Shown: positions 2,865-23,841, counted from the first letter of the stretch. The stretch: DNA of 23,841 nt from an uncultured Candidatus Saccharibacteria bacterium (GCA_964403475.1 CAYOFR010000024.1:1-23841); one strand, 5' to 3'. Numbers and translations are program-made. The notes: generated by a model not told the origin, from the letters alone.

Positions 2865-2875
2865 ATATAAATTAA

Positions 2876-2893
2876 AAACCGCCTAGCGGAATA
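2876..2893 (-). terminator. Small hairpin, ccgc-cta-gcgg followed by a T5 run on the minus strand. It lies between the M50 stop codon and the rpsL start codon. It is either a weak intrinsic terminator or a structure in the rpsL leader.
   Basis: The minus-strand read is tattCCGCtagGCGGtttttaatttatatATG. The 4-bp GC stem is short, hence the low confidence. Confidence 0.3.
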
Positions 2894-2936
2894 CCACACA
2901 CTTTAATATGTAACCATAAAAAATGCAAGCACCCAT

Positions 2937-4016: not shown

Positions 4017-6074
4017 ATGACGCTGTCCTCTACACTGGAATGGCTAAGCCACAATTGGTTGTGGGTGATCATTCCCATCCTTTTGATCGTCTTTTTCAAG
4101 ATTTGGGTGCGCTTCTTTGGCGTAGTACTGATCCCAAACGATTCCATCGGCATCGTCACCAAGCGATGGGTGCTCATGGGCAACAACCGACGCTTGCCCG
4201 ACGGCAAGATCATCGCTCTCAATGGAGAAGCCGGCGTCCAAGCAGACACGCTTGCACCCGGACTGCACTTTGGCTATTGGCCTTGGCAGTACTCGATTGA
4301 CACAGAAGAGTTCGTGGTCATTGAGGAAGACAAGATTGGTGTCGTTGAGTCGCGAGACGGAAAGCCCCTTGAGGCTGGACGTGTTCTCGCCAAGAAGGTC
4401 GCTTGCGACTCATTCCAAGATGCCAGAGCATTCCTTATTGGTGGTGGTGAGCGTGGTCCTCAAATCACGATTATCCCACCAGGTACGTACCGAATCAACA
4501 CCCAGCTCTTCACAGTAAGTGAGGTGCCTGTCCTCGAAATCGCGGACAACAAGATCGGCATCGTCACCACCAAGGAAGGTGCGCCGCTCCCATCAGGAGA
4601 AATTGCAGGCAAGGTCATCGAAGGACACAACATGTTCTGCGATGCCCAAGTCTTCATTGATGGCGGTGGTACCAAGGGTTTGCAAGAGCAAGTGATGCTT
4701 GCTGGTCGGTACTTCCTCAATCCCAATTTCGCAACCGTGGAAATTACGGAGATGACTGTGGTGCCGATTGCACACGTGGGTGTCGTTATCGCCTACGTGG
4801 GTGCGGCTGGAACAGACCTTTCTGGTGCTGCTTTCCAACACGGCAACTTGGTGGCACAGGGAGAAAAGGGTGTTTGGGCTAAGCCCTTTGATCCGGGCAA
4901 GTACCCGATCAACACCATGACTCACAAGGTAGAAAATGTGCCGACAGCCAACGTCGTGCTCAACTGGGCAACCGGTAAGACCGAGTCCCACAAGCTAGAC
5001 GAGAAGCTGTCCACTATCACAGTCCGGTCTTCAGACGGCTTTTCGTTCAATCTGGACGTTAGCCAGATCATCCACATTCCAAGCAACGATGCCTCCAAGG
5101 TTATCGCTCGCTTCGGAAGCGTGGCGAATCTGGTGACACAGGTCCTTGAGCCCACCATTGGCAACTATTTCCGCAATGCGGCTCAAAGCTCTGACGTCAT
5201 TGAGTTCCTCAAGAATCGTCAGGCTCGTCAGAACTCAGCGAAGGAAGCAATTGCTGAAGCTCTCAGGGAGTACAACGTCGTCGCCGTGAATACTTTGATC
5301 GGCGACATCGCTCCTCCTACAGAGCTAATGAAGACTTTGACTGATCGCAAGATTGCTGAACAGCAGAAGCTGACATTTGAAACTCAGCGAACAGCAGAAG
5401 AAACTCGAAAGTCACTCGAGCAGGCCAAGGCGCAAGCCGCTACACAGGCGGGCGTCGTGACTGCAGAGCGATCTGTCGAGATTGCAAAGTTCACCGCTGC
5501 GGCTGCTGTTGAAACAGCCGAGGGTGAAGCCAAGTCCAAGACCATCAATGCCAAAGCTGATGCTGAGGTGACGACGGTGACTGGCACTGCCCTGGCTACC
5601 AAGACGGCGGCAGTCGGTACTGCAGAAGCAACAGTCATTCGTTTGAAGACTGAGGCTGTCGGCCAAGACAACTTTGCTTTGATCGAGGTCGGTGGTGCAC
5701 TTGCCAAGAGCGGTCAGCGACTCACGCCAGACTTTGTTGTTGGCGCGAGCACTGGTCCCGACGGCAAGGGTGGCACTCTCGTTGATGTGTTGCTTGCTGG
5801 TCTCGTTCGCGAAAGCGTGAAGAAGGATGGTCACACTGTCCTTCCCAAGCCCACAACGACCGAACCCGCAGGAAGCACTGACGCTGATACTGCCACTGGA
5901 GCCACTCCGGCCCCAGCTCTGACGGCTCCAACACCGGAAACAGGAAGTCCTGCTCCGGCAAGTGGTACTGGTGACAAATCGGAGATCAAGTTGCAAAGTG
6001 ACGACTCTGCCCAAACGGGTAGCAAGAAGCCTGACAACAAGAAGGATCCGAAGAATCCAGGCAACAACAAGTAG
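4017..6074 (+). CDS. Flotillin-like SPFH/band-7 family membrane protein (YqiK/FloT-like). It has an N-terminal TM helix, two duplicated roughly 70-aa beta-rich modules, an SPFH domain, a long Ala/Glu/Gln-rich coiled-coil, and a Pro/Thr/Ala-rich C-terminal tail ending in a Lys/Asn-rich segment. The coding sequence is GC-rich (about 52-58 %), unlike the rest of the window.
   Basis: 685 aa. The TM helix is WLWVIIPILLIVFFKIWVRFF. The duplicated segments are DKIGVVESRDGKPLEAGRV...FLIGGGERGPQ and DNKIGIVTTKEGAPLPSGEI...FIDGGGTKGLQ. The SPFH-like stretch is ITVRSSDGFSFNLDVSQIIHI...VIARFGSVANLVTQVLEPTIGNYFRNAA, followed by the coiled-coil KIAEQQKLTFETQRTAEETRKSLEQAKAQAATQ.... Codons are GC3-rich (GGC, GCC, ATC, CTC, AAG) against an AAA/GAA/ATT-dominated background. 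Confidence 0.85.
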   Translation: MTLSSTLEWLSHNWLWVIIPILLIVFFKIWVRFFGVVLIPNDSIGIVTKRWVLMGNNRRLPDGKIIALNGEAGVQADTLAPGLHFGYWPWQYSIDTEEFVVIEEDKIGVVESRDGKPLEAGRVLAKKVACDSFQDARAFLIGGGERGPQITIIPPGTYRINTQLFTVSEVPVLEIADNKIGIVTTKEGAPLPSGEIAGKVIEGHNMFCDAQVFIDGGGTKGLQEQVMLAGRYFLNPNFATVEITEMTVVPIAHVGVVIAYVGAAGTDLSGAAFQHGNLVAQGEKGVWAKPFDPGKYPINTMTHKVENVPTANVVLNWATGKTESHKLDEKLSTITVRSSDGFSFNLDVSQIIHIPSNDASKVIARFGSVANLVTQVLEPTIGNYFRNAAQSSDVIEFLKNRQARQNSAKEAIAEALREYNVVAVNTLIGDIAPPTELMKTLTDRKIAEQQKLTFETQRTAEETRKSLEQAKAQAATQAGVVTAERSVEIAKFTAAAAVETAEGEAKSKTINAKADAEVTTVTGTALATKTAAVGTAEATVIRLKTEAVGQDNFALIEVGGALAKSGQRLTPDFVVGASTGPDGKGGTLVDVLLAGLVRESVKKDGHTVLPKPTTTEPAGSTDADTATGATPAPALTAPTPETGSPAPASGTGDKSEIKLQSDDSAQTGSKKPDNKKDPKNPGNNK

Positions 6075-7096: not shown

Positions 7097-7696
7097 ATGA
7101 AACCATACACAGAACAAAAATTTAATATCGGTGAGCTTGAAGGTATTTCTAAAAAAAATATTGAGGAACACTTCAAGCTCTACGCGGGATATGTCAAAAA
7201 TACAAATTTGATAATGGAAAAAATGGCTGAGCTTCGAGCAGACAGCGAAAAAAATGCTTACATGATCGGTGAGCTTCAAAGACGTTTTGGTTTTGAATTT
7301 GATGGAATGAGTAACCATGAATATTATTTTAAAAGCTTAGAAGGCGGACACTCAGATCTCAGCGCAGGCGACCTAAAGAGTATGATTGAGTCCCAGTTTG
7401 GTAGCTTTGATACTTGGCTTGCTACATTTACAGCCATGGCAATGACTCGAGGAGTGGGATGGGCAATGCTTTACTACGATCATCATGCAGGACAGCTCGT
7501 ACACGCTTGGGTAGAAGAGCAACATCTCGGACATCTCACCGGTCTACAGCCAGTCCTCGCTCTCGATATTTGGGAGCATGCATATGTATATGACTATGCA
7601 ACATCTGAAAAGAAAAAATACATCGAAGCTTTTTTCAAAAATCTAAACTGGAGCGTAATAGAGAAAAATTTTATGGAGGCAAAGAAGCTTGTTTAA
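7097..7696 (+). CDS. Fe/Mn-family superoxide dismutase
   Basis: 199 aa with GGH, GWAML, ALDIWEHAYVYDY (D-x-W-E-H ligand motif) and an N-terminal LEG.S....EEHFK..AGYVKNTN region. The second-sphere residues equivalent to E. coli MnSOD His30/His31 are Leu/Tyr here. Confidence 0.85.
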   Translation: MKPYTEQKFNIGELEGISKKNIEEHFKLYAGYVKNTNLIMEKMAELRADSEKNAYMIGELQRRFGFEFDGMSNHEYYFKSLEGGHSDLSAGDLKSMIESQFGSFDTWLATFTAMAMTRGVGWAMLYYDHHAGQLVHAWVEEQHLGHLTGLQPVLALDIWEHAYVYDYATSEKKKYIEAFFKNLNWSVIEKNFMEAKKLV

Positions 7697-9143
7697 GTTT
7701 TTTTCTAACATACAAAAAAGAAAAAATTAAATACAAAATAAAAACTAGCCACGGGGAAACCTGTGGCAAGTTTATGTAAGCGAAAGGTAAACCGGAAAAT
7801 ATTTCAACGACCAAAAGCATATACTGCAACAATAAATAAGAAAAATAACCAAAAATTAAAGAAAGAAAACCGCTAAAAAAACCTACCATACCAGTGACAA
7901 AACTCAGCGCCATCGCTATTGGCACAGCCAATAGTACAAGTAGATTGGTGACAAGAGAAACAATAGATACCATACCTGTCATATAGATAAGTAAAGGCAA
8001 AAGAAAAATTTGCGTAGCAAGTGTGGAAGCAACAGTAGAACGAATACCAAATTTTTCAGGCAAAAAACAAAGTTTTTTCTCAAAAAATGGAGAGCAAACC
8101 ACAAGAGCAAATGTTGCCATACAAGAGAGCTGAAAAGATGGATCTGATAAAAGGATAAGTGGGTTATGAAAAACCATTACAGAAGCAGCGAGAAAAAGTG
8201 CGCGCAAAATATCGTAATTACGTCCAGTCGCTCTACCAACAAGAGCAATACATGACATTATCGAAGCGCGCACCACAGTCGCCCCACTACCAGTAATAAG
8301 GGCAAAAGCAAAAATGCCCAAGATCCCACCGATAACTCCAGCAAACTTTGGTAGAAAAGAGAAAACTTTTACGATAAACTCAGCCACTATCGTCACGTTA
8401 TATCCAGATAGCACCACGACATGAACAAGTCCAGACTGACGAAAAGCATCAGTGAGCTCCTTACCCAAAGAATGTTTAGCACCAAGTAAAATACCTCCAG
8501 CGAGAGAAGAATGTGGCTCAGGAATAACTTTTTGTATATTCTCAATAAAATATTTTTTAAATCTAAAAAGATAATTCAAGAGAAAATTTCCATGACCACG
8601 ATCTATTATAAAAATGTCCGGCCGATAAATCTGATATCCTATACCATCTTTTTTTAAATAAGAAATATAATCAAACTCCCTACCGGTATTTGTCTCAAAA
8701 TTTTCAGGCAACTCTAAAAGACCCGATATTTTTACTCTGTCGCCATAAGCAAAATCATTGCCCAGTGGAACATTTACCAAGATTTTATATTTAGAATCAT
8801 CTGGAGCCACAACCAGACGCATACCACTTTCTCTGACATCGGGCTCATCTACCAAAATACCGCTGATTTCTATTTTTTCACCGACATAATCCTCAAAAAT
8901 ATCTTTTGTAAAAGGATGAGCAACAAAAGAATGCCTGGTAACACCAGCAAATATACAAAAAACTAAAACACTAAATAAAAATATTGAAGGAAATTTTTTC
9001 CTAAGAAAAGTAAAGGTTAAAAACAAAAGAAAAGAAACAAGAAAACAGTACAAACAAAAAATAAAAGAAAATTTTAAGAGAGAATCGATAGCAACGCCAC
9101 ACAAAAAACCAATCAAGACAACATAGAGAAAATTATCGCGCAT
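7671..9143 (-). CDS. comEC: ComEC/Rec2 DNA-uptake channel protein (DUF4131 OB-fold region plus competence membrane domain). It lacks the fused MBL domain. Its 3' end overlaps the convergent SOD gene by 26 bp.
   Basis: 490 aa, polytopic. The competence-domain region is ...LAGGILLGAKHSLGKELTDAFRQSGLVHVVVLSGYNVTIVAEF...GSGATVVRASIMSCIALVGRATGR... The ORF ends at 7671 while the SOD ORF ends at 7696. Confidence 0.8.
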   Translation of the reverse strand: MRDNFLYVVLIGFLCGVAIDSLLKFSFIFCLYCFLVSFLLFLTFTFLRKKFPSIFLFSVLVFCIFAGVTRHSFVAHPFTKDIFEDYVGEKIEISGILVDEPDVRESGMRLVVAPDDSKYKILVNVPLGNDFAYGDRVKISGLLELPENFETNTGREFDYISYLKKDGIGYQIYRPDIFIIDRGHGNFLLNYLFRFKKYFIENIQKVIPEPHSSLAGGILLGAKHSLGKELTDAFRQSGLVHVVVLSGYNVTIVAEFIVKVFSFLPKFAGVIGGILGIFAFALITGSGATVVRASIMSCIALVGRATGRNYDILRALFLAASVMVFHNPLILLSDPSFQLSCMATFALVVCSPFFEKKLCFLPEKFGIRSTVASTLATQIFLLPLLIYMTGMVSIVSLVTNLLVLLAVPIAMALSFVTGMVGFFSGFLSLIFGYFSYLLLQYMLLVVEIFSGLPFAYINLPQVSPWLVFILYLIFSFLYVRKKLKQASLPP

Positions 9144-9924: not shown

Positions 9925-11658
9925 CTAAACAATAATATCAACGACCCTCAAACGCAATTCTGGATAATTTTTAAACATAGACTTTTCAAAAGTCGCGACT
10001 AGGTTTATTTTCATACCAGCAGTGAGACTTTCTCTACGTTGCACAGAAGCAAAAAAACAAATAGCCGACACGCTCTTTCCTTGGGAAGGAGTAAAACGAA
10101 GTTCTAAATGGTTTTTTTCTTTACCAAAAATTTTGGCTTCTTTTATTACGATTTGCTCAAATAGAAAAAGAGGTTTTGGATTACCTACACCAAAAGGCGC
10201 GAGTTTCTCTATCATTTTATAAGTATTCCAATTCACATCATCAATAGACAACTTTCTATCAATCAATATCTTTTCCATATCATAGGCACCAGACTTTTCA
10301 CGAAGTTTTTCATAAGCTTCTACTATTTTTTCTTCTAGTGTATGAATATTTTCATGAGAGACCGCAAAACCTCCAGACATCTTGTGTCCACCGAAATGCA
10401 AAAAAGAATCTTTTGTTGCCTCCATTAATTCAACGACACTTATTGATCCATCAGAACGACATGAGCCCTTTATAGTAGAACCACCCTCTCGCCCCCACAG
10501 AAAAACAGTGGCTCCGTAATCATCCTTTAATGTGTTTGCCGCCAAACCGAGCAGAGAAGGTTTCCAATCGGGATTACCTATTACCACCACTTTTTTCATG
10601 GTGCCATTTTCTACACGATGAGTAAGAATTTTTTTTATTTCTTTTACCATTGAAGCCACTATCCCCTTTCTTTCATCATTTATATTATTTAAATGAGCGC
10701 TCAGCATTCCCGCTTCCACAACATCACGAGTGGAAAGAAGTTTGAAAGCGTCGAGAGGAACACCCATTCTAGAAGCCGCATTTATACGTGGAGAAATCGT
10801 AAAGCCAATATCATCCTCAGAAATGTGACGCTGATTTGTTTTTACTGTGCTCAAAAGTTTGAGCAATCCGACACGTGGAGAAATACGTAACACCTTTAGA
10901 CCATAGAAAGCAAAAACACGATTTTCACCAATCAAAGGCACCATATCAGAAAGAGTTGCTAGCCCAACCATATCAAGAAGCCACTTTTCCCAACCATGAC
11001 GCATTTCTTTTACCATGTCTCTTTGTCGCATTGTATAAACAAGACCCTGAACAAACTTAAAAATCACACCAGAACCACAAAGTATTTTTTCTGGATACTG
11101 ACAATCTGATTGTTTAGGATTTAAAATTGCATAAGCATTTGGAATATCACTACCAGCTTCATGATGATCTGTAATAATTACATCAATACCGAGCTCTATA
11201 GCCCTTCTTACAGCCAGAACGTCTGTTATACCGCAATCAATTGTGATGACTAGATTTGCCCCATTTTTTGCAAACTCATCTATGGCTTCTACATGCAGAC
11301 CAAAACCCTCATCGATGCGATGCGGTATATAATTTTCAAAATTTTCATAACCAATTTTTTTAAAAAGATCATGGAGAACAACAGCACCAGGAATACCATC
11401 AGCATCATAGTCACTATAAATAATTACCTTCTGTTTTTCTGCTATAGCTTTTAGCACACGCTCGACAGCCTTTTCCATATCTTTCATCCTAAAAGGATGA
11501 TGATTGTCACGATCATAGTCTGGATTTAAAAATTGTTCTGCTTGTTCACGATTAGATATACCCCTAGCACGAAGCAAATCTCGAAGTAGCTCAGGGTAAA
11601 CATTCATTTCATCTTCTAGTGTCTGCGGAAAGTTTTCCCTAAGTAAATATTGATTCAT
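9925..11658 (-). CDS. recJ: Single-stranded-DNA-specific exonuclease RecJ (DHH/DHHA1 phosphoesterase plus C-terminal OB fold)
   Basis: 577 aa with IIYSDYDADGIPGAVVLH (DHH motif I), ITIDCGI, IITDHHE (DHH motif), and the GGHKMSGGFAV motif of the DHHA1 domain. It sits 2 bp upstream of rnhA. Confidence 0.9.
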   Translation of the reverse strand: MNQYLLRENFPQTLEDEMNVYPELLRDLLRARGISNREQAEQFLNPDYDRDNHHPFRMKDMEKAVERVLKAIAEKQKVIIYSDYDADGIPGAVVLHDLFKKIGYENFENYIPHRIDEGFGLHVEAIDEFAKNGANLVITIDCGITDVLAVRRAIELGIDVIITDHHEAGSDIPNAYAILNPKQSDCQYPEKILCGSGVIFKFVQGLVYTMRQRDMVKEMRHGWEKWLLDMVGLATLSDMVPLIGENRVFAFYGLKVLRISPRVGLLKLLSTVKTNQRHISEDDIGFTISPRINAASRMGVPLDAFKLLSTRDVVEAGMLSAHLNNINDERKGIVASMVKEIKKILTHRVENGTMKKVVVIGNPDWKPSLLGLAANTLKDDYGATVFLWGREGGSTIKGSCRSDGSISVVELMEATKDSFLHFGGHKMSGGFAVSHENIHTLEEKIVEAYEKLREKSGAYDMEKILIDRKLSIDDVNWNTYKMIEKLAPFGVGNPKPLFLFEQIVIKEAKIFGKEKNHLELRFTPSQGKSVSAICFFASVQRRESLTAGMKINLVATFEKSMFKNYPELRLRVVDIIV

Positions 11659-13982: not shown

Positions 13983-15458
13983 CTATTCAATCTCTTCCCA
14001 AGACAATATGGTGTATTGATCAGAAGTGAGTGGAAAACTCGGTGGTGGCCCATATAAAAGGCTGGCATCATAGTTTATCTGTCTAGTGTCGTATCCAGTA
14101 CCATCAGTATAGGCAAAACCGTATCTATTATAAGTAGCAAGCATGCCAAACAGAGTGATGGAATTTCTCGTATACCAATTGTTTCCACCAGATTTACAGC
14201 TGGTTCCATAATAATACCTTCCCACTCTACCGTTTTGAGCCACCAAAGCAGCATCTATACGTAGATCGTCTTCACTAACCATACCGACATTTATATCTTT
14301 TTGTGCAATCAGAGAAAGAACATCCTGACCATCATAATTTGTATATTTAAGATCATTGTTCACTGTAATACTTGTCCTAGTAGATGAGTTGTCTGGAAAC
14401 TTACCTGAAGCGATAGTAAGACGAGCTGTGTTTATTGTTCCTTCTATCCATAAATTATCCTCGACAAAAATTATTCCGTTTGATGGAAAGTTTTGGTTTG
14501 ATTGCAAAAGCGTTGTGCCGTTTACACTCCAAGTACCCCACCCGGTCTGACTTTGAGAATTAGAACATCCGTTTGGAGTAGAAACCATTGTATTTACTCT
14601 ATATATATCAAATTTATCTGTAGTCTTTAAAACAATCTTGTACCCCAAGGCGCCAGATCCAGCAAAATACCTACCAGAGGACTGAGCGTCTGATTTCATT
14701 TGTGCTAAATCAGCTGTTAAACCTGTAAAGTCTACTGCTGGCACAGGAAACTGTCTTCCTGCCTCAAAAACGTCAGGTCTACTTGGCACAGGGCTTGTAG
14801 GTGGTGCTTCGGCAGAACGAAATGTATCATTTACGCCACTTGATGGTGGTGCATTTACGTGAGTATGCACAGCAAACTCATTGGCACCACTATGATCTGG
14901 ATCGTCATAAGAAGATAGCGCACTTGATATAACATTGTGCGCCAACCCATCAAATCTTATACCTCCATTTGAGTGTATTGGACCAAAGACTTCTGTACCT
15001 TCTCCAAAACGCATATCTCCATTTGATACAAAAGCAAATTTTGCAAAAGACGCTATCGCAAGTGTTGATTCTATTGTTCTAGATGCACTTGGATCAGCTA
15101 ACACATTTCCAGTGGAACGAATTTTCACAATTGTAGTACCAGTCGGTGGAGGAGTAATTGTTAAAACAAAATTTCCAATAACATTTCCATCTTTATCTGT
15201 AAAATCATGAGTATATGGACCTGGTTGACCAGTGCCATCTTTGTAGTCTTGAGGCGCATGTGCTAAGTGCCATCTATAATAATCAATACCCGCCTCTGCT
15301 ATCTGTATGGCCTGCTCTCTATAAACAGCTCTTTTAGAAAGTTTTATATTAGAAGCACCCCACATTATTAATCCACCCATCACGACGACAGAAATAGAAG
15401 CAAAAACCAAAACCTGTATCACCAAAAAACCACTTTTTTTATATTTTTTAAAAATCAT
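13983..15458 (-). CDS. PilX-N-domain-like large pilus-associated protein (a candidate minor pilin or tip/priming-complex component). It has an N-terminal hydrophobic anchor and no canonical prepilin Glu+5.
   Basis: 491 aa. The N-terminus is KKSGFLVIQVLVFASISVVVMGGLIMWGAS...REQAIQIAEAGIDYY, matching the PilX_N motif ...A.q.AEAGl. The rest is Ser/Thr/Asn/Gly-rich and extracellular. The start ATGA overlaps the upstream pilin gene stop. Confidence 0.55.
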   Translation of the reverse strand: MIFKKYKKSGFLVIQVLVFASISVVVMGGLIMWGASNIKLSKRAVYREQAIQIAEAGIDYYRWHLAHAPQDYKDGTGQPGPYTHDFTDKDGNVIGNFVLTITPPPTGTTIVKIRSTGNVLADPSASRTIESTLAIASFAKFAFVSNGDMRFGEGTEVFGPIHSNGGIRFDGLAHNVISSALSSYDDPDHSGANEFAVHTHVNAPPSSGVNDTFRSAEAPPTSPVPSRPDVFEAGRQFPVPAVDFTGLTADLAQMKSDAQSSGRYFAGSGALGYKIVLKTTDKFDIYRVNTMVSTPNGCSNSQSQTGWGTWSVNGTTLLQSNQNFPSNGIIFVEDNLWIEGTINTARLTIASGKFPDNSSTRTSITVNNDLKYTNYDGQDVLSLIAQKDINVGMVSEDDLRIDAALVAQNGRVGRYYYGTSCKSGGNNWYTRNSITLFGMLATYNRYGFAYTDGTGYDTRQINYDASLLYGPPPSFPLTSDQYTILSWEEIE

Positions 15459-16072
15459 AAATTATCTTTCAAATTTCTTAGAGATACCTGAGAAGTTACT
15501 GTAGAAGGTCCAGGTGGACGGTTTGTATCTTTATCAATTGTAACTAATATCTTTATAAGTCTCACCGAAAGAGTGTTTATAGGTAAAGACATCGGGGATG
15601 TTGTCCCAGAATAACTTGAATCAAAATAACTAAATATCGGTGAGCTTGTAGAATTAACAACACTTGTAATCAACGTTTCTACCTTTTCTGTACCAGTGTA
15701 TCCGACAGGGCTTCCAGAAGGATCAGTCACACCTTTTTTAAGAGTTCCACTTTGTAAAAAATATCTTACCTTCTCTTTTGACCCATCGTTATCTATATCA
15801 CTATAAAAAGTTAGTGTGTTTGTAGCCGCTTGAGCTATAGGATAAGACCCCGCAGCAGAAGGAGACATTGACCTCATCTCACCAACCATTAGACGCAACA
15901 CTCTACCGCCTTCAAACTGAGCGTTCATGCTCCCCTGTAAACTAGAATTGAGAGAAAAAATATCTTTTTGAAATGTAGTAATGCCGACAATAACAAAAGA
16001 CAATATTCCAACCACAACCACAATCTCGGCCAAAGAAATACCTCTATTCTTTTTTGAAATTTTTAAAATCAT
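15455..16072 (-). CDS. Type IV pilin-like protein with a class III (prepilin) signal, PilW/GspJ-like minor pilin
   Basis: 205 aa. The N-terminus is MILKISKKNRGISLAEIVVVVGILSF, with G-ISLAE matching the G-FTLIE cleavage/methylation motif and Glu at +5. A later ...VRYFLQSGTLKKG resembles the GspJ/PilW R.Yyl..g.L.r motif. Confidence 0.65.
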   Translation of the reverse strand: MILKISKKNRGISLAEIVVVVGILSFVIVGITTFQKDIFSLNSSLQGSMNAQFEGGRVLRLMVGEMRSMSPSAAGSYPIAQAATNTLTFYSDIDNDGSKEKVRYFLQSGTLKKGVTDPSGSPVGYTGTEKVETLITSVVNSTSSPIFSYFDSSYSGTTSPMSLPINTLSVRLIKILVTIDKDTNRPPGPSTVTSQVSLRNLKDNL

Positions 16073-16074
16073 TT

Positions 16075-17853
16075 TTATTCTGGCAATAGAACAACATCAT
16101 GCTGTTGCCAATTTGCACTTACGGGTACAGACTCAGTAAAATCTTCATAACCAGATCTAGACACTACTACATCATAAGTACCAGCAGAGAGATCTGAGAA
16201 AAAAGCTTGTCCAGGAGGTACACAAGATGAAGTATAGGTAAAGGAAATTTGTGCAATATTTGGAGTCAAAGTCGTACTTGCTGTATTTAGAAAAAGTTTA
16301 TATCTCAAAAATTCTTTTCCAGAATGAACAGAACTCAAATCTGGAGTAGAGATTGTGTAGTATGATCCAGCTGTTCCATCTGGACCCACAAAATTCCAAG
16401 TTGCATTATCATTGTTTGTTGCAACCTTAAACCTTACATTGTCAGCTCCGGTATCTGCTGGCTGACCCACAGGTTCCCATAATATTTTATTAAAATTACT
16501 TGTTGTACCAGTATCAAAAGTAGAACTCGTCAAAACACCATCTGTCACATAAATGCCAAAAACATTTCTCAACCTTAACTCACCAATAGGATTGTCTGTT
16601 TCAATATTTCCGTCAGAAGAAAAATATTGCGTATTATTTACAAAATCAGCTTGTCCGCTACCACCAGACCAATCACTCTGAGTAGAAAATCCTTGTCCGG
16701 TAATATGAGATTCTGTAAAAGAACCTGAAGTAATAGTCACATCAGCACCAGACACAGGAAGCATTGTGCTAGCATCTCTTACTGATATCAAAAGGCTTTT
16801 TGTGTTTTTAGGAACCACAATCAAATCAACATCTTGAGAAGAATTCGCAACTAGATTAAATGGGTTGGGAGGATTCATACCCACCAGATCATACGCACTA
16901 TCTGTAAGAGATACTGTGTATGTATCCCAACGCATATCAGAAACAGTCTTTCTTCCAGAAGAGTTTGTGAATAAACTTTGAGAATATTTTTTAACATCTG
17001 GATTTGCACCTATAGAAGTAGCGCCTGTAAGACTAAAATCAATATTGGGCACAATGCCACAAGACGGTGTAATACTTGAGAAATTGATAGTACTTACTCT
17101 ATCTATCACAAATGTAACTTGGGTAACTTGTTGCACAGCAACAGTAGCGTGCGGTTTTATTGGATTTGGATTGCCAACATCGCCAGATGTATATGTTTGA
17201 TCAGTTGTATATCCATCTTTACTTACAGTTATTTGATAAGACTCTATTCCGGGAGGCACATCAACCACCTGCAACATTCCAGATGTATTTGTAACATCAT
17301 CTATTACCAAATCTGGATTCGGTGTCGTATTTACTATATGAACATCAGCACCCTCTAGCGGCTGACCGTTTGAATCAAGAACTTTAATAAATAAAGCTCC
17401 GTTGGTAGAAGCCGTCTCTAGATTTTTAGGCGCAACCCTAGAGGTAATAGTCATACCACTAAAACTTTTACACGAATCACAAGTAACCTCTATTTCTACG
17501 AGACGATAATCAGCTGGCGACAGATCGTTTGGTGATTGACCGAGCTGTCCATCAAAAGGATCATCTATATTTCTTACAGTTGTAATAACATTAAAAGAAA
17601 TACCGTCTCTAACTATTGTCTGTTCGTGGGTCAAAACGCCAGCCGGCACAGAATTTACAATACCGACATCTGAATATTTAAGATTGCGAATTATTTCAAA
17701 TTGTTCGTTTATCAAACTTGCTGCAGTAATCTTTACATGCGATGCGCCCACAACCTCATATATAGAAGTAAAGCCCTTATAAATACTTACAGAAACAAGT
17801 AAAAACAAAGCGACGCCTACCAGTACCTCTACTAAAGTTAGTCCTTTGTTCAT
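16075..17853 (-). CDS. Large (592 aa) prepilin-type protein. It has a PilV/GspI-like N-terminal pilin module fused to roughly 500 aa of extracellular beta-rich domains and is a candidate pilus-tip adhesin.
   Basis: The N-terminus is MNKGLTLVEVLVGVALFLLVSV (G-LTLVE with Glu+5) followed by ITAASLINEQFEIIRNL. The C-terminal region is rich in T/S/N/G/D/V with repeated ...V.V..G...VTITSG...-like carboxypeptidase-regulatory-like stretches and a Cys pair (VTCDSCKS). Confidence 0.6.
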   Translation of the reverse strand: MNKGLTLVEVLVGVALFLLVSVSIYKGFTSIYEVVGASHVKITAASLINEQFEIIRNLKYSDVGIVNSVPAGVLTHEQTIVRDGISFNVITTVRNIDDPFDGQLGQSPNDLSPADYRLVEIEVTCDSCKSFSGMTITSRVAPKNLETASTNGALFIKVLDSNGQPLEGADVHIVNTTPNPDLVIDDVTNTSGMLQVVDVPPGIESYQITVSKDGYTTDQTYTSGDVGNPNPIKPHATVAVQQVTQVTFVIDRVSTINFSSITPSCGIVPNIDFSLTGATSIGANPDVKKYSQSLFTNSSGRKTVSDMRWDTYTVSLTDSAYDLVGMNPPNPFNLVANSSQDVDLIVVPKNTKSLLISVRDASTMLPVSGADVTITSGSFTESHITGQGFSTQSDWSGGSGQADFVNNTQYFSSDGNIETDNPIGELRLRNVFGIYVTDGVLTSSTFDTGTTSNFNKILWEPVGQPADTGADNVRFKVATNNDNATWNFVGPDGTAGSYYTISTPDLSSVHSGKEFLRYKLFLNTASTTLTPNIAQISFTYTSSCVPPGQAFFSDLSAGTYDVVVSRSGYEDFTESVPVSANWQQHDVVLLPE

Positions 17854-17861
17854 AGTTTAAA

Positions 17862-19082
17862 TTAGATTGCATCTGCCAATGAATACATCGGGCCGAGCAT
17901 TGATATAGCAAAAAATCCTACGCCAATACCAATCACAACCATCAAGAACGGTTCGATAATTGTCGACATATCTTTTGTCTTTTGATCTACTTCATCTTCA
18001 TAAAACTGAGCGACATTTTTCAACATTTCTGATAATTTTCCTGTCTCCTCTCCAATACTTACCATCTCCCCCACAAAGACTGGATAAAGATTTTCGTGTT
18101 TTAGAAAAATATTAGAAACTGGATCACCTTTTTCTATGTTTACCTCTGCCTCTTTCAAAACTTTTTTGTAATAAGAATTTTGTATAACATCCTGTGTAAT
18201 ACGCACAGCCACAAGTACATCGACGCCAGAAGACAAAAGAGAAGAAAATGTGCGCGCTGTGCGAGCAGAGTTTAAATCTTTTACGATTGCAGAAATCACC
18301 GGAATACGCAAAACCAAAGTGTCTAATATTTTTTTACCTTTCTCTGTTTTGATAAACAAATAAGAGCCAACACCAGCAACCAATAAAACAACAAGATTAA
18401 TTAAAACGTTGTTTTTCAAAAAATCAGAAAACCAGATAACCATTTTTGTAGAAGTTGGTAGATTTACATTCAACTCTCTGAATGTAGCAGTCAATGTCGG
18501 CACCAAATATATAAGCATCAATATACCGATTGTGATCATTATTGATAAAATAATCGCTGGATATATCATTGCACCACGAACTTTTTTTGTAAGTTGATAA
18601 GCTTTTTCAAGCTGAGCAGAAACCACTTTCAAAGATTGTGTGAGACTGCCACTTTCCTCACCAGATTTAACCATAGATATAAAAAGTGTAGAAAAAACAT
18701 CATTATGTTTAGCCATAGCTTCGCTAAGAGCACTACCCTTTCCTATATCAGAATTGAGTTCATTTATAATTTTCTTAAATTTTTTATTTCTCGTTTGTCG
18801 CTCCATTACAGAAAGAGCTCTTGCTAGAGGAAGCCCGGCATCAATCATTGTGCCGAGATTTTTAGCAAACATTATTTTATCTATAATTTTTACGCCGCCC
18901 AGAAAACTGCCAAATTTCACATTCTTTAAAAAACTCACGCCAACTTTTTCTTCTTGGGCAAATGTGACAGTGTCCCCTTCCAAGCGTATTTGTTGATACA
19001 AAGCAGATTTGCTCTCTGCTTCTTTTACGCCCTCATATTTTTCTCCTGTTTTTTTGACTGCTTTAAAGTTAAATTTTGGCAT
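17862..19082 (-). CDS. pilC: Type IV pilus / T2SS platform protein PilC/GspF family
   Basis: 406 aa with two T2SSF-like repeats, three TM segments and an N-terminal cytoplasmic domain. It lies immediately downstream of the PilB ATPase gene. Confidence 0.85.
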   Translation of the reverse strand: MPKFNFKAVKKTGEKYEGVKEAESKSALYQQIRLEGDTVTFAQEEKVGVSFLKNVKFGSFLGGVKIIDKIMFAKNLGTMIDAGLPLARALSVMERQTRNKKFKKIINELNSDIGKGSALSEAMAKHNDVFSTLFISMVKSGEESGSLTQSLKVVSAQLEKAYQLTKKVRGAMIYPAIILSIMITIGILMLIYLVPTLTATFRELNVNLPTSTKMVIWFSDFLKNNVLINLVVLLVAGVGSYLFIKTEKGKKILDTLVLRIPVISAIVKDLNSARTARTFSSLLSSGVDVLVAVRITQDVIQNSYYKKVLKEAEVNIEKGDPVSNIFLKHENLYPVFVGEMVSIGEETGKLSEMLKNVAQFYEDEVDQKTKDMSTIIEPFLMVVIGIGVGFFAISMLGPMYSLADAI

Positions 19083-19101: not shown

Positions 19102-20856
19102 CTATTCTGAGATAACACGTAATATTTCTTCGATTGTTGTTTGACCTTGGACGGCTTTGAAAATTCCATCTTCTATCATAGAAAGCATCCCTTCAGCTTT
19201 TGCCTGTTTTTCTATTTCTTTATCTGTTTTTCCCTGCATCACAAGTTCTTTTATTGCAGGAGAAACTTTTAACACTTCATATATACCTACACGACCACTA
19301 AAAGCTTGCTCTGGATCAATGCCGGCTTTTGGTCTATACAAAGGAATCTTGTCCCAAGTGACTTTACCCTCTACAACCTTTTCTTCTTTCAAAAATTTCA
19401 AAACACGATCGAGATCAACAGTCTTTTTTAAGGTTTCGATTTCTGCATCTGTCAAAAAATATTTTTCTTTTTTATCTGTAAGTTTGCGTACGAGACGTTG
19501 TGCGATGACCACATTTAAAGTAGACACGATAAGGAATGGCTCGACTTTCATATCAATCAGACGCGGTATTGCACCAGCAGCTGAGTTGGTATGCAAAGTA
19601 GAAAGCACCAAATGACCAGTAAGAGATGCGTTTACAGCAAGAGCCGCTGTCTCTCCGTCACGAATTTCTCCCACCATGATGATGTCAGGATCCTGACGAA
19701 CAAGAGTTCGCAGACCGTTACTGAATGTAAGACCAATTTCTGATTTCACCTGTGTTTGATTGATACGGTTCATCTGATATTCCACAGGATCTTCAATAGT
19801 AGAGATGTTTACATCTGGAGTATTTAAAATATCAAGCATTGTATAAAGAGATGTTGTTTTTCCTGAGCCTGTTGGTCCAGTGGTGAGTATCAAGCCAGTC
19901 GTCTGATTCATCGCTTTGTGTATTTGTTCCAAAGCTTCTCCATGATATCCAAGTACTTCAAGTGTAAATCCAGACGCAGTCTCTCTCAAAAGACGCATAA
20001 CAGTTTTCTCTCCGTAATAAACAGGTAAAGTAGAAACACGGAAAGAAACTTTCTCCCCATTCATATCTATCTTGAAACGTCCGTCTTGCGGTAAACGCTT
20101 TTCATCCAGCTTTAGGTTTGCCAAAACTTTTATGCGAGCGGTGATACTTGTAGAAATATCTTTTGGTAAAGTCATTGCGTCATGCAACATTCCGTCTATT
20201 CGATATCTGACTATCACCTGATTTTCTAGTGGCTCTATATGTATATCAGAAGCATTTTGAATAATTGCATGCTTTAAAAGGGTATCTACTATACGCACCA
20301 CGGGCATATCTTCTGCCAATTTCTTCAAGTCACTTTCAGAAACATCTTCCCCATCCACACCATCAGCAACAGCTTTTATAGAGACAGACTCTTTTTGAAT
20401 AATATCTCCGAATTCTGCTTTCAAACTCTTTTGATATTGTAAAAGAGCGCTCTTCATTGATTCATTATCAGTAAGTCTAGGAAGAATTTTTAAACCAACT
20501 TTCTTTTTTACAAAATCAATAGCAGTCAAATTTGCGATATCAAGCATTGCAACCTCTAGACCACCGGGTACTTTTTTATAGCCAACAATGTTGTGGTTGC
20601 GCGCAATCGGTTCTGGTATTAAAGCCAGGACATCAAAATCAATTTTCTGACCCTTTAGATCTACAAAAGGAATACCTAAAATGTTTGCTTGGATTTTTCT
20701 GAGATCATCTTCACCAACCTTTCCTCTGCTTACCAATATATCTCCTATGTCAGTGTCATTTTCTTTTGCTTCTTTTTCTGCATCAGCAAAATCGACTTTC
20801 GATACTAGTCCAGAATCTAAAATAAAATCTTTAAATTGTTTTTCTTCAATGTGCAT
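19102..20856 (-). CDS. pilB: Type IV pilus assembly ATPase PilB/GspE family. The start is taken at the ATG ending 20856. The ORF-track TTG start at 20874 would add 6 aa.
   Basis: An N-terminal GSPII_E_N-like domain (...DDLRKIQANILGIPFVDL...), Walker A GPTGSGKTTSLYT, the Asp box, Walker B IIMVGEIRD, and the His box LVLSTLHTNSAAG. The usual C-terminal tetracysteine Zn motif is absent, since there is no Cys after the His box. Confidence 0.9.
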   Translation of the reverse strand: MHIEEKQFKDFILDSGLVSKVDFADAEKEAKENDTDIGDILVSRGKVGEDDLRKIQANILGIPFVDLKGQKIDFDVLALIPEPIARNHNIVGYKKVPGGLEVAMLDIANLTAIDFVKKKVGLKILPRLTDNESMKSALLQYQKSLKAEFGDIIQKESVSIKAVADGVDGEDVSESDLKKLAEDMPVVRIVDTLLKHAIIQNASDIHIEPLENQVIVRYRIDGMLHDAMTLPKDISTSITARIKVLANLKLDEKRLPQDGRFKIDMNGEKVSFRVSTLPVYYGEKTVMRLLRETASGFTLEVLGYHGEALEQIHKAMNQTTGLILTTGPTGSGKTTSLYTMLDILNTPDVNISTIEDPVEYQMNRINQTQVKSEIGLTFSNGLRTLVRQDPDIIMVGEIRDGETAALAVNASLTGHLVLSTLHTNSAAGAIPRLIDMKVEPFLIVSTLNVVIAQRLVRKLTDKKEKYFLTDAEIETLKKTVDLDRVLKFLKEEKVVEGKVTWDKIPLYRPKAGIDPEQAFSGRVGIYEVLKVSPAIKELVMQGKTDKEIEKQAKAEGMLSMIEDGIFKAVQGQTTIEEILRVISE

Positions 20857-20889
20857 AATAGTGTTACAACACAATTATTATATCAGAAA

Positions 20890-20924
20890 ACAAAACACAC
20901 ATCTGTGGAGATGTGTGTTTTGAA
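20890..20924 (-). terminator. Intrinsic terminator on the minus strand between the upstream secreted-protein gene and pilB. A 12-bp stem aaacacacatct/agatgtgtgttt flanks a 4-nt loop, and gttttct follows on the minus strand.
   Basis: Stem halves at 20893-20904 and 20909-20920. A TATAAT-like element (gatataataatt on the minus strand, about 20877-20888) follows and could be the pilB promoter. Confidence 0.6.
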
Positions 20925-20944: not shown

Positions 20945-21904
20945 TTATAGAGAACCAATTCTCATAACCAAGACATCACCGTTACAATTCTTGTATCCGG
21001 CACCAAAATTCCACCACTGCCATTGACCGTTAGTATAATGTAAAAGAGTTCCAGCAAGTGTCGGAGCACCTTCACCAACAGTATTAATACAGTTTACAGC
21101 TCTCCATGATCCGTCTCCGGTTCCATTATTTGCTTCAGCTGAATCACATGGAACAGTGTTACTTGAATTAGAACACAATACAGCCATAGGCTCCCAAGTA
21201 GCCTGTCCACCGGTTCCGTTTGCCACAAGTGCATCACCAGACTTTGCACCACCACCACGAATTCTTATTGTTCCGTTTATATCAAGAGTATCTGATGGTT
21301 GTTGACCTGATTGTGTGTTGTTAAAAATAGAACCTATACCAACCTTAGATTGATTATAATAAATATTTGTATTAGCCAAGCTTGCAGAGCCCGAAAACAT
21401 AGGAACCTGATTTGCTGTACCAGAACCACTCACTCCTCCACCAGATCCGCCTGACCCACTAGCAGGCAACCTCCATTCTGCCAAACCACCATTACCCACC
21501 GCAGTTAAAACAGCACCTTCACTGACTGAATTATATTCTTGGCCTGGCAAAACTGGTCCGTCACCACCACCACGGATTCTTATTTTTCCGCCAACATCCA
21601 AAGTAGCTTGGCCGGTCAAATCTTCTAGATTTCCTATAGCAACTCTTCCATTTCTCACATAAAGACCTACTTGAGATATACCGCCAGTTAAATCCTGACC
21701 AACAGTAAGTCCTCCTGATTTGATCTGACCAGACAAGCCAACATGAATAGGTGCATCACAACCAGCTTGTCCACTAGTACAATTTGGCGGAGTGCTTTGT
21801 GGACCCGTCCAAGCTGTAAGCTGACTAATTCCCAAACTCAACACAAGAGCGAGAATTATTATTTTAAAACTATTTACTATTTCTTTTTTTGTTAAAACTT
21901 TCAT
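20945..21904 (-). CDS. Secreted glycine-rich protein with two tail-fibre-like repeat modules (hypothetical)
   Basis: 319 aa. The signal peptide is MKVLTKKEIVNSFKIIILALVLSLGISQLTA, followed by WTGPQSTPPN. There are two repeats of about 100 aa: ...VAIG...LDVGGKIRIRGGGDGPVL...GNGGLAEWRLP and ...KVGIGS...LDINGTIRIRGGGAKSGDAL...GTGGQATWEPM. The C-terminal region is Cys- and Trp-rich (NGQWQWWNFGAGYKNCNGD). Confidence 0.6.
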   Translation of the reverse strand: MKVLTKKEIVNSFKIIILALVLSLGISQLTAWTGPQSTPPNCTSGQAGCDAPIHVGLSGQIKSGGLTVGQDLTGGISQVGLYVRNGRVAIGNLEDLTGQATLDVGGKIRIRGGGDGPVLPGQEYNSVSEGAVLTAVGNGGLAEWRLPASGSGGSGGGVSGSGTANQVPMFSGSASLANTNIYYNQSKVGIGSIFNNTQSGQQPSDTLDINGTIRIRGGGAKSGDALVANGTGGQATWEPMAVLCSNSSNTVPCDSAEANNGTGDGSWRAVNCINTVGEGAPTLAGTLLHYTNGQWQWWNFGAGYKNCNGDVLVMRIGSL

Positions 21905-21944
21905 GTTATTAATTTGGATTGCTATTAACTATTAATATTATATC

Positions 21945-22274
21945 TTATTTCACACTCGTTGCATCAAGTATTTTCTTTCTCTCTGCTTCACTAGTGGAAT
22001 TCGCGCCGGATTTTGCTGTTGTACTGTTTATTATCTCTTTCATTTCTTCAGCACTCACATTTACTTTATTTTTTGCTGAAGTCGCTTCTATTATCTTCTC
22101 CTCTTCTGTCATTTCATGAACAGGAGAGATGTTGATCATTTGTTTTTTAAATATAGTCACCACAGCGACAACAACAATCAAACAAGCAATGAAAATTATT
22201 ATCCAGCGAGCTTTATTGTGATTTTTTGTGGGAACAGGAGCCGGGTTGAAAATTGGGTTGTTTGTATAATCCAT
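21945..22274 (-). CDS. Small single-pass membrane protein with a triple 'E-E-x-K-x-I-x-x-T-S-A-K' repeat (hypothetical)
   Basis: 109 aa. The TM helix is WIIIFIACLIVVVAVVTIF. The repeats are TEEEKIIEATSAKNKVNVS, AEEMKEIINSTTAKSGANSTS and EAERKKILDATSVK. Confidence 0.45.
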   Translation of the reverse strand: MDYTNNPIFNPAPVPTKNHNKARWIIIFIACLIVVVAVVTIFKKQMINISPVHEMTEEEKIIEATSAKNKVNVSAEEMKEIINSTTAKSGANSTSEAERKKILDATSVK

Positions 22275-22290
22275 AATATTTATTTATTTT

Positions 22291-23841
22291 TTAAAACTCA
22301 TTTACATTTGGACGCACTATAACCGTTGCAGAAGGACTACAATTTACCAGCAAAGAAGAGCTGTTTGAAGTATCGGTGACAACCACAGAAGCTGTTTTTA
22401 TACCAGTAGTAGAATAAACCTTAACAACACTTTGATCGGTTCCAGTTAATCCATTATCACCAGACCAACTATATGTAAAAGGTCCGACTCCTATAAGCGA
22501 AGCTGGGTCAACTGTCCATGTAATAGGAGAATTGACTATATAAGGTGGATTTTCTAAAGGTTTACAAGTTGCTGATACTGTAGAAGGTACAATTACAGTA
22601 ACCGTCTTTGCTGCAGAGCTTGGAGTGTTTTGACTTCCAGAAACGGTAATGACATATGTTCCTGGAGTTGTTGTTGTCTGCGCAGTTATAGAAAGTTTTT
22701 TCTGACATGATGGCTCACAACTAGATCCATCTGTGAAAGAAGATGTGATTGGATTACTAGCAGTTGAGGTATTGTTTGCTCCAGGTGCTGTAAAGGTCAT
22801 AGATTTAGAAAGTGTCACTGTTTCTGTTTTTCCAGAAACCAAATTTATAGATATATCAGATTCTTTTGTTGTATTTTGTGGATTTTGCCAAGAAAAGACA
22901 GCTGGATTTATAGAAATAGAATAATCAAAAGGAGCAGGGATACCGTAAGTTACTTTGTGGCGATTGTTTACTGGATCATCAAACCTAATCCAGCCAATAG
23001 CTTCTCCACCCCAAGCAGAGCCGACTATTCTTCCAGTGTTTCTGTTATATGTCAGACCAGCGTCACCGTCTTCATGACCAACTCCTGTAGCATGATTTGT
23101 TCCTGAAAGATGTATCCATCCATCAAAACCAGGTGTTGTATCACCGCTTATTACTCTAGCCCAACCAACAATACTTCCCACAGCACTACTTACATTTGTA
23201 AGAGAGCCAGCGGTACCAGCACCCTCTGCTCCAGAAGGTCCAGTTTGTCCACCAAAATTAATCCAACCCACAGCATCGCTCCAAGCATGACCCGATAAAG
23301 TTCCTGATCCACCCATTGTGCCATTATTATTTACCTTTACACCAAAGCTTGTAGATTGACCTGGAGCATTTGCATCACAAGGACTATCAGCAACGCCGTT
23401 TTGATCATCGTCTGTACAACTATTCATTTTTATCCAGCCGATGTTATCAGACCATGCCCAACCAAAAACATTACCCTCTTCATTTTCCACACACTGTCCA
23501 TTTGAATATGAGGAATTTCCCTGACATTTTGCTTCACACTTTGGAGAACTTCCGGCCGGTGTACTGCAGTTTTCCACTGCGGTATATGGCGTGTTTGCTG
23601 TAAGACCAGAATCATCTCCAGAACAAAGAGATGAATTTGCTGGCAAACTACCAGTACAAGAAAAAGTTTGTCCTCCCCCTCCACCACCATTTGAGCCATC
23701 ATTACCGTTACCATTACCAGAATCCGACTTCTTTCCACCGCCAGACAAAGAATCATCCTGACCAGGATTGTTAACACCATCTGAATCAACATATGTTACT
23801 TCCTGACAGGTACCAGCAACACCCTCTTCACAAGAACTACC
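22291..23841 (-). CDS. Large Cys-rich secreted protein with repeated 'GWAWS-x3-GWI-x-F' motifs and a C-terminal PKD domain. The reading frame stays open to the window end, so the 5' end is not in the window. The ORF-track start at 23748 is an internal TTG.
   Basis: Manual translation of the complement of 23749-23841 in frame gives GSSCEEGVAGTCQEVTYVDSDGVNNPGQDDS with no stop. The repeats are VFGWAWSDNIGWIKMN, SGHAWSDAVGWINFG, IVGWARVISGD...FDGWIHLSG and VGSAWGGEAIGWIRFDD. The PKD-like segment is PFTYSWSGDNGLTGTDQSVVKVYSTTGIKTASVVVTD (W.FGDG-type motif). Confidence 0.7.
   Translation of the reverse strand, partial: GSSCEEGVAGTCQEVTYVDSDGVNNPGQDDSLSGGGKKSDSGNGNGNDGSNGGGGGGQTFSCTGSLPANSSLCSGDDSGLTANTPYTAVENCSTPAGSSPKCEAKCQGNSSYSNGQCVENEEGNVFGWAWSDNIGWIKMNSCTDDDQNGVADSPCDANAPGQSTSFGVKVNNNGTMGGSGTLSGHAWSDAVGWINFGGQTGPSGAEGAGTAGSLTNVSSAVGSIVGWARVISGDTTPGFDGWIHLSGTNHATGVGHEDGDAGLTYNRNTGRIVGSAWGGEAIGWIRFDDPVNNRHKVTYGIPAPFDYSISINPAVFSWQNPQNTTKESDISINLVSGKTETVTLSKSMTFTAPGANNTSTASNPITSSFTDGSSCEPSCQKKLSITAQTTTTPGTYVITVSGSQNTPSSAAKTVTVIVPSTVSATCKPLENPPYIVNSPITWTVDPASLIGVGPFTYSWSGDNGLTGTDQSVVKVYSTTGIKTASVVVTDTSNSSSLLVNCSPSATVIVRPNVNEF

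Follow-up and report, generated by a model that had tools for sequence, protein, structure and literature searches.

The window considered here, the whole stretch of 23,841 nucleotides that was analysed, carries three co-oriented open reading frames (ORFs) on the minus strand upstream of the type IV pilus genes pilB-pilC; they are named P1, P2 and P3 (Table 1). The odds are judged to be about even (a probability of roughly 0.5) that the three genes represent one copy of a recurrent cassette of the Paceibacteria, of the candidate phyla radiation (CPR), that builds cell-surface fibres or adhesins alongside type IV pili. An earlier interpretation made from the DNA alone (the sequence-only reading) had placed three surface-protein genes upstream of pilB, and ORF calling recovered all three there. 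P3 contains a tryptophan-rich domain referred to as the GW-hairpin domain, and genes encoding this domain are called GW genes.

Under this interpretation P3 would be exported and held in the membrane by an N-terminal anchor, showing its GW domain on a stalk of immunoglobulin-like (Ig-like) and PKD domains. P1 would be exported by the Sec pathway, with probable cleavage between Ala and Trp (A↓W), and would form a tail-fibre-like protein, probably a trimer. The mature N-terminus of P1, which is conserved, would attach it to a conserved partner, for which the GW protein of the cassette is the simplest candidate and another envelope component the alternative, and its variable distal part would bind a ligand. 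P2, tethered in the membrane with three short amphipathic helices outside the cell, may act as an assembly helper or tether. Together the three products could form surface fibres or adhesins that cooperate with the neighbouring type IV pilus in attachment to host cells or particles. Such cooperation is suggested by the frequent position of the cassette directly upstream of pilB-pilC and of genes for large pilin-like proteins. Type IV pili have been implicated in host attachment of cultured CPR bacteria (PMC9894109, PMC11623550, PMC13293708).

Recurrence of the cassette across genomes

Gene neighbourhoods were counted on 80 genome loci after our own ORF calling, with hidden Markov model (HMM) labels for the three families and for PilB and PilC. 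A GW ORF was present in 78 of these loci, each from a different genome, and they form the denominator for the neighbourhood counts. A P1-type gene lay no more than three genes from the GW gene in 36 of the 78 loci and was directly adjacent in 24. Counted by gene, 58 of 408 ORFs within three genes of a GW gene were of P1 type, compared with 3 of 502 at distances beyond five genes. All three gene types were adjacent and co-oriented in the window and in loci L003, L005, L006 and L008. A transmembrane (TM) segment was present in 22 of the 28 small same-strand ORFs adjoining GW genes, many of which contained two or three tandem repeats of P2 type. The association of the three genes with one another is robust. 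The contig shared by L003 and L011 carries a second set about 9 kb upstream (L011 positions 1-3400), encoding a GW protein of 373 aa, a P2-like protein of 91 aa and a fibre of 291 aa, which shows that the cassette can be multi-copy.

Linkage to pilus genes, which the sequence-only reading had proposed to check in related genomes, recurs in loci where P3 identity has fallen as low as 29% and is limited to about a quarter of the GW genes. pilB was found downstream, on the same strand and within 10 kb, in 19 of 78 loci; restricting the count to the 45 loci for which 6 kb or more of downstream sequence was available gave 14. The gap from GW gene to pilB ranged from 37 to 8,575 bp. By a rough estimate of our own, which assumes some 800 genes per genome and one or two copies of pilB, chance would bring pilB this close in approximately 2-3% of cases. 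Five loci retrieved through P3 homologues share one gene order, with P3 identity declining from 60% to 29% and pilB identity down to 67%. This order comprises NusA on the opposite strand, the GW gene, a TM protein of about 105-115 aa, one to three fibres, pilB, pilC, and then pilins and/or TIM-PGK-HIT-RecJ-RNase H. Two variants were seen: in L010 an S74 fibre and two small proteins are encoded upstream of the GW gene, which abuts pilB, and in L054 pilBC and pilins flank the cassette on both sides.

Anatomy of the three proteins

P1 has the properties of a secreted protein, and the W-T-G-P motif after its leader and the two copies of a VGIG module, both proposed in the sequence-only reading, were recovered. 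Leaders of the P1 family consist of a basic n-region and a hydrophobic h-region and close with an invariant Ala, after which comes Trp. Relatives have AxA-like sites, among them VYA↓W and VFA↓W, and from these features we infer cleavage of the P1 signal at A↓W. Directly after the P1 leader comes AWTGPQSTPPNC. The mature N-terminus (aa 32-105) follows the pattern W-T-G-P-x3-P-P-x-C..GC-D-A-P-I-H-V-G..G-Q-I-K-x-G-G-L ... V-x-I-G ... L-D-V-G-G. The corresponding family pattern is W-T/S-G/A-P-x3-P-P-x2-N-x2-A-P-I/L-N-V-G/S-x3-Q-x-K-x-G-x-L, then V-G-I-G-T..P...L-D-V-x-G units, and beyond the VGIG...LDV units the sequences are wholly divergent. Self-alignment of the two P1 modules (...VGIG...LD(V/I).G.IRIRGGG...G.A.W) scored 91, compared with 32 ± 6 (maximum 70) for 500 shuffles. 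The homologues P0036 and P0037 were 50% and 38% identical to P1 by BLASTP.

Word-indexed searches returned few relatives of P1, the leader profile yielding 10 proteins, and the leader was traced by HMM on the fetched loci in preference to such searches. Among 56 leader-bearing proteins from GW loci, Pfam identified Peptidase_S74 in eight, Gly_rich_2 in eight, collagen in three and Gp38 in one. Peptidase_S74 was likewise present in five of the 10 leader-profile matches, and the L010 protein at the position equivalent to P1 combines the leader with collagen repeats and S74. Peptidase_S74 is an intramolecular chaperone of tail fibres and endosialidases, and Gp38 is a tail-fibre adhesin. Two to six tandem P1-type paralogues with the same leader and differing distal parts were found in L003, L053, L056, L074 and L084. 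By analogy, a constant N-terminus together with variable C-termini and tandem paralogues is the pattern of receptor-binding fibres, and at the level of the family the sequences support a kinship of P1 to tail fibres. Neither P1 nor P2 gave a meaningful match in NCBIfam or PHROGs, and none of P1, P2 and P3 matched an enzyme family in the profile libraries; clear enzyme matches had been named in the sequence-only reading as an outcome that would count against it. The three proteins also lack an N_methyl match and a G↓FTLIE motif, and the P1 leader ends in ...SQLTA↓WTGP, so that they are not type IV pilins.

The missing N-terminal part of P3 was estimated as about 85-95 residues by alignment with full-length homologues. 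These are 697-776 aa long and begin with a basic stretch and a hydrophobic segment of about 20 residues, and in shorter homologues (about 410-450 aa) the GW region comes straight after a classical signal peptide; the missing 5' part of P3 accordingly probably encodes a TM or signal anchor. Features of secretion, whose absence from full-length P3 would have counted against the sequence-only reading by its own account, were found for each protein: a Sec signal with Ala before Trp in P1, a single TM segment in P2, and an anchor or signal in the full-length homologues of P3. The 34 homologues of P3 extend down to 26% identity over the aligned segment. An AlphaFold2 (AF2) model of P3 built from a 30-sequence alignment was all-beta, with a mean predicted local distance difference test score (pLDDT) of 80.9 and a predicted template modelling score of 0.66, and yielded the domains listed in Table 1.

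Four GW motifs are present in P3, GWAWSDNIGWIKM at residue 127, GHAWSDAVGWINF at 184, GWAR...DGWIHL at 226-246 and GSAWGGEAIGWIRF at 274, where four or five had been proposed. Their Gly and Trp positions are invariant over 30 P3 homologues, and the repeats are therefore not due to chance. The Cys-rich composition and C-terminal PKD domain that had been read from the sequence were both borne out: P3 has 14 Cys in total, and PKD_4 matched with E = 2.2e-6 at 28.0 bits, against a cut-off of 27. With a score above the gathering threshold and a beta-sandwich of about 85 aa, the C-terminus belongs to the PKD domains (Pfam PF18911/PF00801), the only tested membership in a known family among P1-P3. A beta domain of about 130 aa in the closest relatives, P0001-P0004, is lacking from P3 of the window, and the six-Cys module (C-x-G-x-x-P-x-N-S-x-x-C...K-C-E-x-x-C) is doubled in P0002, P0003 and P0004; this duplication and the variable presence of the beta domain indicate that the N-terminal half of the P3 family is modular. 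Residue E515 is at least 90% conserved among close homologues, and xEF or xEI are the commonest ends in the wider GW family described below, an end that matches no known sorting signal.

The GW-hairpin unit has the form G[WYH]AW[SG]..[IV]GWI.F, and a domain of about 180 aa contains four Trp-rich beta-hairpins. A profile (A6) of 19 GW segments was searched exhaustively against 1.84 billion representatives of protein clusters formed at 50% identity. It matched 9,241 representatives at E ≤ 1e-3, 6,989 at ≤ 1e-10 and 1,455 at ≤ 1e-30. Anatomy was counted on those 140 of the 150 best matches that were newly returned. Their median length is 482 aa; 125 have an N-terminal hydrophobic segment, most contain two to four hairpin motifs, and a pilin-like motif occurs in one. 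In the usual layout the hydrophobic N-terminus is followed directly by the GW domain and then by Ig, PKD or fn3 domains. Pfam searches of 85 family representatives found only PKD, Ig-like and fn3-type companions and no enzyme domains. At least 553 GW relatives were confirmed in GTDB, with one genome per species, and the named taxa among the best 80 are all Patescibacteria, including Paceibacterota, Nomura-, Taylor-, Kaiser-, Wolfe-, Wildermuth- and Terrybacteria. A highly expressed Ig-like and PKD protein, PMX.108_01191, reported from cultures of Ca. Minisyncoccus (Kuroda et al. 2024, PMC10936435), may be a member of the GW family. By itself the GW region had no Pfam match even at E ≤ 1, none in NCBIfam and no sequence relative in the PDB, where the best profile match (E = 0.95) was irrelevant. 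The earlier remark that the motif could not be assigned to a characterised family therefore agrees with these searches, and the GW-hairpin appears from its sequence distribution to be an uncharacterised and very widespread domain family.

For P2, hydropathy and inspection of the repeats upheld the description of a TM protein with three repeats of E-E-x-K-x-I-x2-TSAK type, more fully E-E-x-K-x-I-x2-T-S/T-A/V-K. Positional homologues of 91-133 aa occur in L003, L005, L006 and L008. The P2-type layout consists of a short cytoplasmic N-terminus, one TM segment and two or three tandem units separated by Ser/Thr-rich linkers, each unit (L-T/S-x-E-E-K/Q-x-x-I-L-x-x-L-S) being a helix-capping box followed by a short amphipathic helix. 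No recurrent Pfam family was found among 18 P2-type proteins at E ≤ 0.1, and PDB matches of P2 were insignificant (protein A B domain, E = 0.009; Spy, E = 0.5-0.9). Two candidate identities were rejected. The bitopic topology would fit PilN or PilO, and neither profile was among the top 25 of the 55 weak Pfam families matched by the 18 proteins; LTXXQ was also absent from these 25, and a Spy/CpxP LTXXQ chaperone was discarded in view of this and of the Spy values above. On sequence grounds P2 appears to belong to an orphan family.

Alternative explanations and relation to known systems

Several observations weigh against a surface cassette that works with the pilus. Three quarters of the GW genes do not lie beside pilB, and the four-gene surroundings of GW genes show no excess of pilin-like genes (8 of 507 against 8 of 487). 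The pilB-linked copies lie in the conserved-order block (NusA ... TIM, PGK, HIT, RecJ), which ties housekeeping genes to pilB as well, so that linkage to pilB may in part be inherited gene order. In L014, L030, L039, L048 and L074 a GW gene and one to three fibre genes occupy the slot between NusA and TIM with no pilBC; either the pilus genes have been lost or moved from this slot or the cassette is independent of them. The terminator and short promoter region that the sequence-only reading had placed before pilB were located as a hairpin, a T run and a TATAAT, and with this hairpin standing between P1 and pilB, the cassette probably has a transcript of its own. P1 itself has no Pfam match at E ≤ 0.01, with S74, collagen and Gp38 all absent, and its AF2 monomer model was poor (pLDDT 52), which would not be surprising for a trimeric fibre. 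In fold searches with P3 every match stemmed from the Ig-like or PKD domains and none from the GW domain, for which the modelled structure thus offers no support of a binding function. Taken together, the association with the pilus is real, weaker than the link among the three genes, and may partly reflect inherited order.

Some of these points would suit structural proteins of the envelope or of an S-layer type, in which the GW domain anchors to the cell's own wall polymer, the Ig-like and PKD domains and the fibres form an outer coat, and adjacency to pilB is inherited order; we regard this as unlikely, though deserving of serious consideration. The cassettes without pilBC in five genomes and the housekeeping genes inside the conserved block agree with it, as do short members of the GW family that have cleavable signal peptides and no membrane anchor and which something else must retain. 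The aromatic hairpin repeats also appear similar in general layout to wall-binding repeats: CW_binding_1, ChW and Listeria GW modules likewise occur in exported proteins and consist of short tandem units with Gly-Trp and aromatic residues that are predicted to form beta-hairpins. The GW domain differs from them in a unit spacing of about 45-55 aa and in its motif, G.AWS..IGWI.F, and Pfam SLH, CW_binding_1, ChW and GW_SH3 gave no match to the 19 GW segments even at E ≤ 1. Ig-like and PKD surface proteins of known type (S-layer Sap and SbsC, Methanosarcina YVTN-PKD 1l0q, the PKD domains of ColH and PrtV) have no counterpart of the GW-hairpin or the six-Cys module, for neither of which Pfam or the PDB contains a relative, and the S-layer fold matches were generic Ig-like ones with template modelling scores of 0.13-0.19. 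Multiple copies, highly variable C-termini and paralogous fibres fit recognition better than a uniform lattice, and pilB proximity, at 24-31%, clearly exceeds our rough expectation of 2-3%.

A closer tie to the pilus would exist if P1-type fibres, and perhaps the GW protein, were cargo or tip passengers of the pilus, the mature N-terminus (WTGP..PP..N..APINVG) being recognised after Sec export by the large pilin-like proteins and the fibre being pushed out or displayed. Type IVb pili secrete TcpF or CofJ when the N-terminal signal of these proteins engages the minor pilin at the pilus tip. TcpF of V. cholerae and CofJ of enterotoxigenic Escherichia coli (ETEC) resemble the cassette as non-core adhesion proteins at a type IV pilus locus in which an N-terminal segment is a possible recognition signal. 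The conserved mature N-terminus and variable remainder of P1 are in keeping with such a route, as are the place of the cassette directly upstream of pilB-pilC and of unusually large pilin-like genes (592, 205 and 491 aa), and the S74 and collagen domains of relatives, which suggest three-fold symmetric fibres. We nevertheless hold it improbable, given that many P1-type genes are far from any pilus gene, that P1 has no sequence similarity to TcpF or CofJ and that the link between GW and P1 genes is far stronger than that between P1 and pilB. The modular adhesive pilins of Streptococcus sanguinis (PMC8179133) offer a similar parallel of adhesion proteins within or beside a type IV pilus locus; unlike these systems, P1-P3 are not pilins and the cassette also occurs away from pilus genes. 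Replacement of missing pilus parts, with the three proteins as lineage-specific analogues of the PilM/N/O alignment complex or of a wall-spanning conduit, would account for the conserved place beside pilB and for the failure to see pilM, pilN, pilO or pilQ in the window or the syntenic loci, and P2 is bitopic as PilN and PilO are. This seems very improbable: profile similarity to PilN, PilO or PilQ was not found, PilN and PilO are twice as large as P2, a genome can contain several cassettes, these often lie far from pilus genes, and variable C-termini and tail-fibre domains are unlike a conserved machine part.

The tail-fibre domains also bear on a viral origin. Relatives of P1 that end in S74 or contain collagen or Gp38 are like S74 fibres and endosialidases (T5 pb1, K1F endosialidase) and Gp38 adhesins, and, as in phage tail fibres, proteins of the P1 family keep the N-terminal part constant, vary in their distal parts and occur as tandem paralogues. 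These domains, and Foldseek matches to phage tail and decoration proteins in BFVD, could mark the genes as the remnant of a prophage tail-fibre module. We find this hardly credible, since the BFVD matches were generic Ig-like ones with template modelling scores of at most 0.23, the genes hold a fixed place in a housekeeping block across genomes, and the window contains no baseplate, tail or other phage genes besides the three in question and no PHROG match at E < 0.01 (the best, to a PHROG of unknown function, had E = 0.014). Moreover, all members of the P1 family begin with a Sec-type signal peptide and are thus exported by the cell, not assembled onto a virion. A strict DNA pattern of the P1 leader, which as a positive control found 10 sites in 6 of 90 CPR loci, had no match across 2.9 million viral contigs, among which the GW domain also had no relative. 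The idea of a phage-like receptor-binding protein co-opted for the cell surface, put forward in the sequence-only reading, thus stands as regards the tail-fibre domains in relatives of P1 and fails as regards viral matches and the S74 domain in P1 itself.

A bolder form of the fibre interpretation, which we likewise think improbable, would make the P1-type proteins exchangeable tail-fibre-like receptor-binding proteins mounted on the Paceibacteria type IV pilus or on a GW dock. WTGP-x3-PP-x2-N-x2-APINVG-x3-Q-K-G-L would then be a universal docking or secretion signal, the GW domain would either receive this signal or represent a novel fold that binds wall or glycan, and the tandem paralogues would set host range. 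If true, cells of the largest uncultured bacterial radiation would possess a counterpart of the host-range cassettes of phages.

Ig/PKD surface proteins and S74 tail-fibre-like proteins are already known as kinds in cellular genomes. No description of the GW-hairpin domain, the A↓WTGP leader, the P2 repeat protein or the three-gene cassette was found in the searched literature, Pfam, NCBIfam or PHROGs, and the first three merit Pfam or NCBIfam models. Knowledge of how the ultra-small CPR bacteria, which depend on hosts, recognise and retain them comes largely from a few cultured Saccharibacteria, in which type IV pili are implicated. Here three linked and very widespread families without a database model, very large and specific to a major uncultured radiation, have the look of variable-tip surface fibres and often lie beside a pilus motor. 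Should they be host-recognition devices, they would be candidates for the prediction of host range from metagenomes, for antibodies or tags with which to find hosts, and for experiments in the cultured relative Minisyncoccus.

Gene order and neighbouring genes of the window

The closest loci to the window are metagenome-assembled genomes of Candidatus Paceibacterota (Parcubacteria, CPR), and proteins from GCA_046350795.1 and a JGI contig share 95% identity with PilB of the window. Exact copies of P1 were found only on two short contigs, L001 and L002, neither of which extends the 5' end of P3; L001 begins at the same base as the window end on that side.

Table 1. Coordinates of the cassette, its protein segments and the adjoining pilus genes in the 23,841-nucleotide window.
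Feature	Position	Strand	Description	Basis
P1	20945..21904	minus	319-aa exported tail-fibre-like protein	ORF, homologues, family alignments
P1 aa 1-31	21812..21904	minus	Sec-type signal peptide, predicted cleavage LTA↓W	Ala31 invariant, Trp32 nearly invariant
P1 aa 32-105	21590..21811	minus	Family-defining mature N-terminus	Conserved in alignments A1, A4, A5, A8
P1 aa 76-144	21473..21679	minus	Internal repeat 1	Self-alignment
P1 aa 176-237	21194..21379	minus	Internal repeat 2	Self-alignment
P1 aa 240-319	20948..21187	minus	Variable four-Cys distal domain, shared by closest homologues only	pLDDT 60-83
P2	21945..22274	minus	109-aa bitopic membrane protein	ORF, hydropathy, repeats, positional homologues
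P2 aa 24-42	22149-22205	minus	TM segment	KD19 = 3.26 at aa 24
P2 aa 55-109	21948-22112	minus	Three helix-cap repeats	Repeat inspection
P3	22291..23841	minus	3' 516 codons and stop; GW-hairpin/Ig-like/PKD surface protein; 5' end beyond window	
P3 aa 1-55	23677..23841	minus	Gly/Ser/Asn/Asp-rich disordered linker	pLDDT <50
P3 aa 60-120	23482..23664	minus	Small six-Cys module: C62, C73, C92, C102, C106, C117	pLDDT 84-94
P3 aa 121-300	22942..23481	minus	GW-hairpin domain, four Trp-rich beta-hairpins	AF2 model, invariant G/W columns
P3 aa 303-420	22582..22935	minus	Ig-like beta-sandwich domain	AF2 model
P3 aa 423-510	22312..22575	minus	PKD domain	PKD_4 match
P3 aa 511-516 and stop	22291..22311	minus	C-terminal tail (...RPNVNEF)	Conserved x-E-F end
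Terminator-like hairpin	20891..20922	minus	14-bp stem, then T run; between P1 stop and pilB	
pilB	19102..20874	minus	T2SSE/MshEN ATPase	Pfam T2SSE, E = 3.5e-124
pilC	17862..19082	minus	T2SSF platform protein	Pfam T2SSF, E = 4.5e-58
Pilin-like genes (three)	13983..17853	minus	592, 205 and 491 aa	Pfam, leader inspection

The start of pilB is probably the ATG at 20856 (MHIEEKQF...) and not the TTG at 20874 that opens the longest ORF, because the former gives a better fit to homologues of 584 aa. The TATAAT sits between the hairpin and this ATG, a placement that suggests a separate promoter for pilB. In Pfam searches the 592-aa pilin-like protein matched N_methyl and CarboxypepD_reg/PEGA and the 205-aa protein matched N_methyl. 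The 491-aa ORF (13983-15458, minus) had no Pfam match; it starts with MIFKKYKKSG↓FLVIQVLVF, in which Gln replaces Glu5, and continues with a PilX-like helix. Its place behind the genes for the 592- and 205-aa pilin-like proteins is conserved in L003, L008, L040 and L071, and it probably encodes a third, giant minor pilin.

Beyond the pilins the same strand encodes TIM, PGK, HIT, RecJ, RNase H and ComEC, and no RNA genes were identified in the window by Rfam and tRNA scans. ComEC (Competence and DUF4131; 7671-9143, minus) and RecJ (9925-11658, minus) lie within a few kb of the pilus genes, in line with the proposal that CPR pili serve in DNA uptake (PMC13293708). On the plus strand, a 685-aa SPFH/Band_7 protein with a long Ala/Thr/Pro-rich C-terminal tail is encoded at 4017-6074 inside a sharp GC island. 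GC content there is 0.53, compared with about 0.37 in the rest of the window, and GC3 is 0.58, compared with 0.28 in pilB; the gene has the look of one acquired horizontally or of an assembly chimera.

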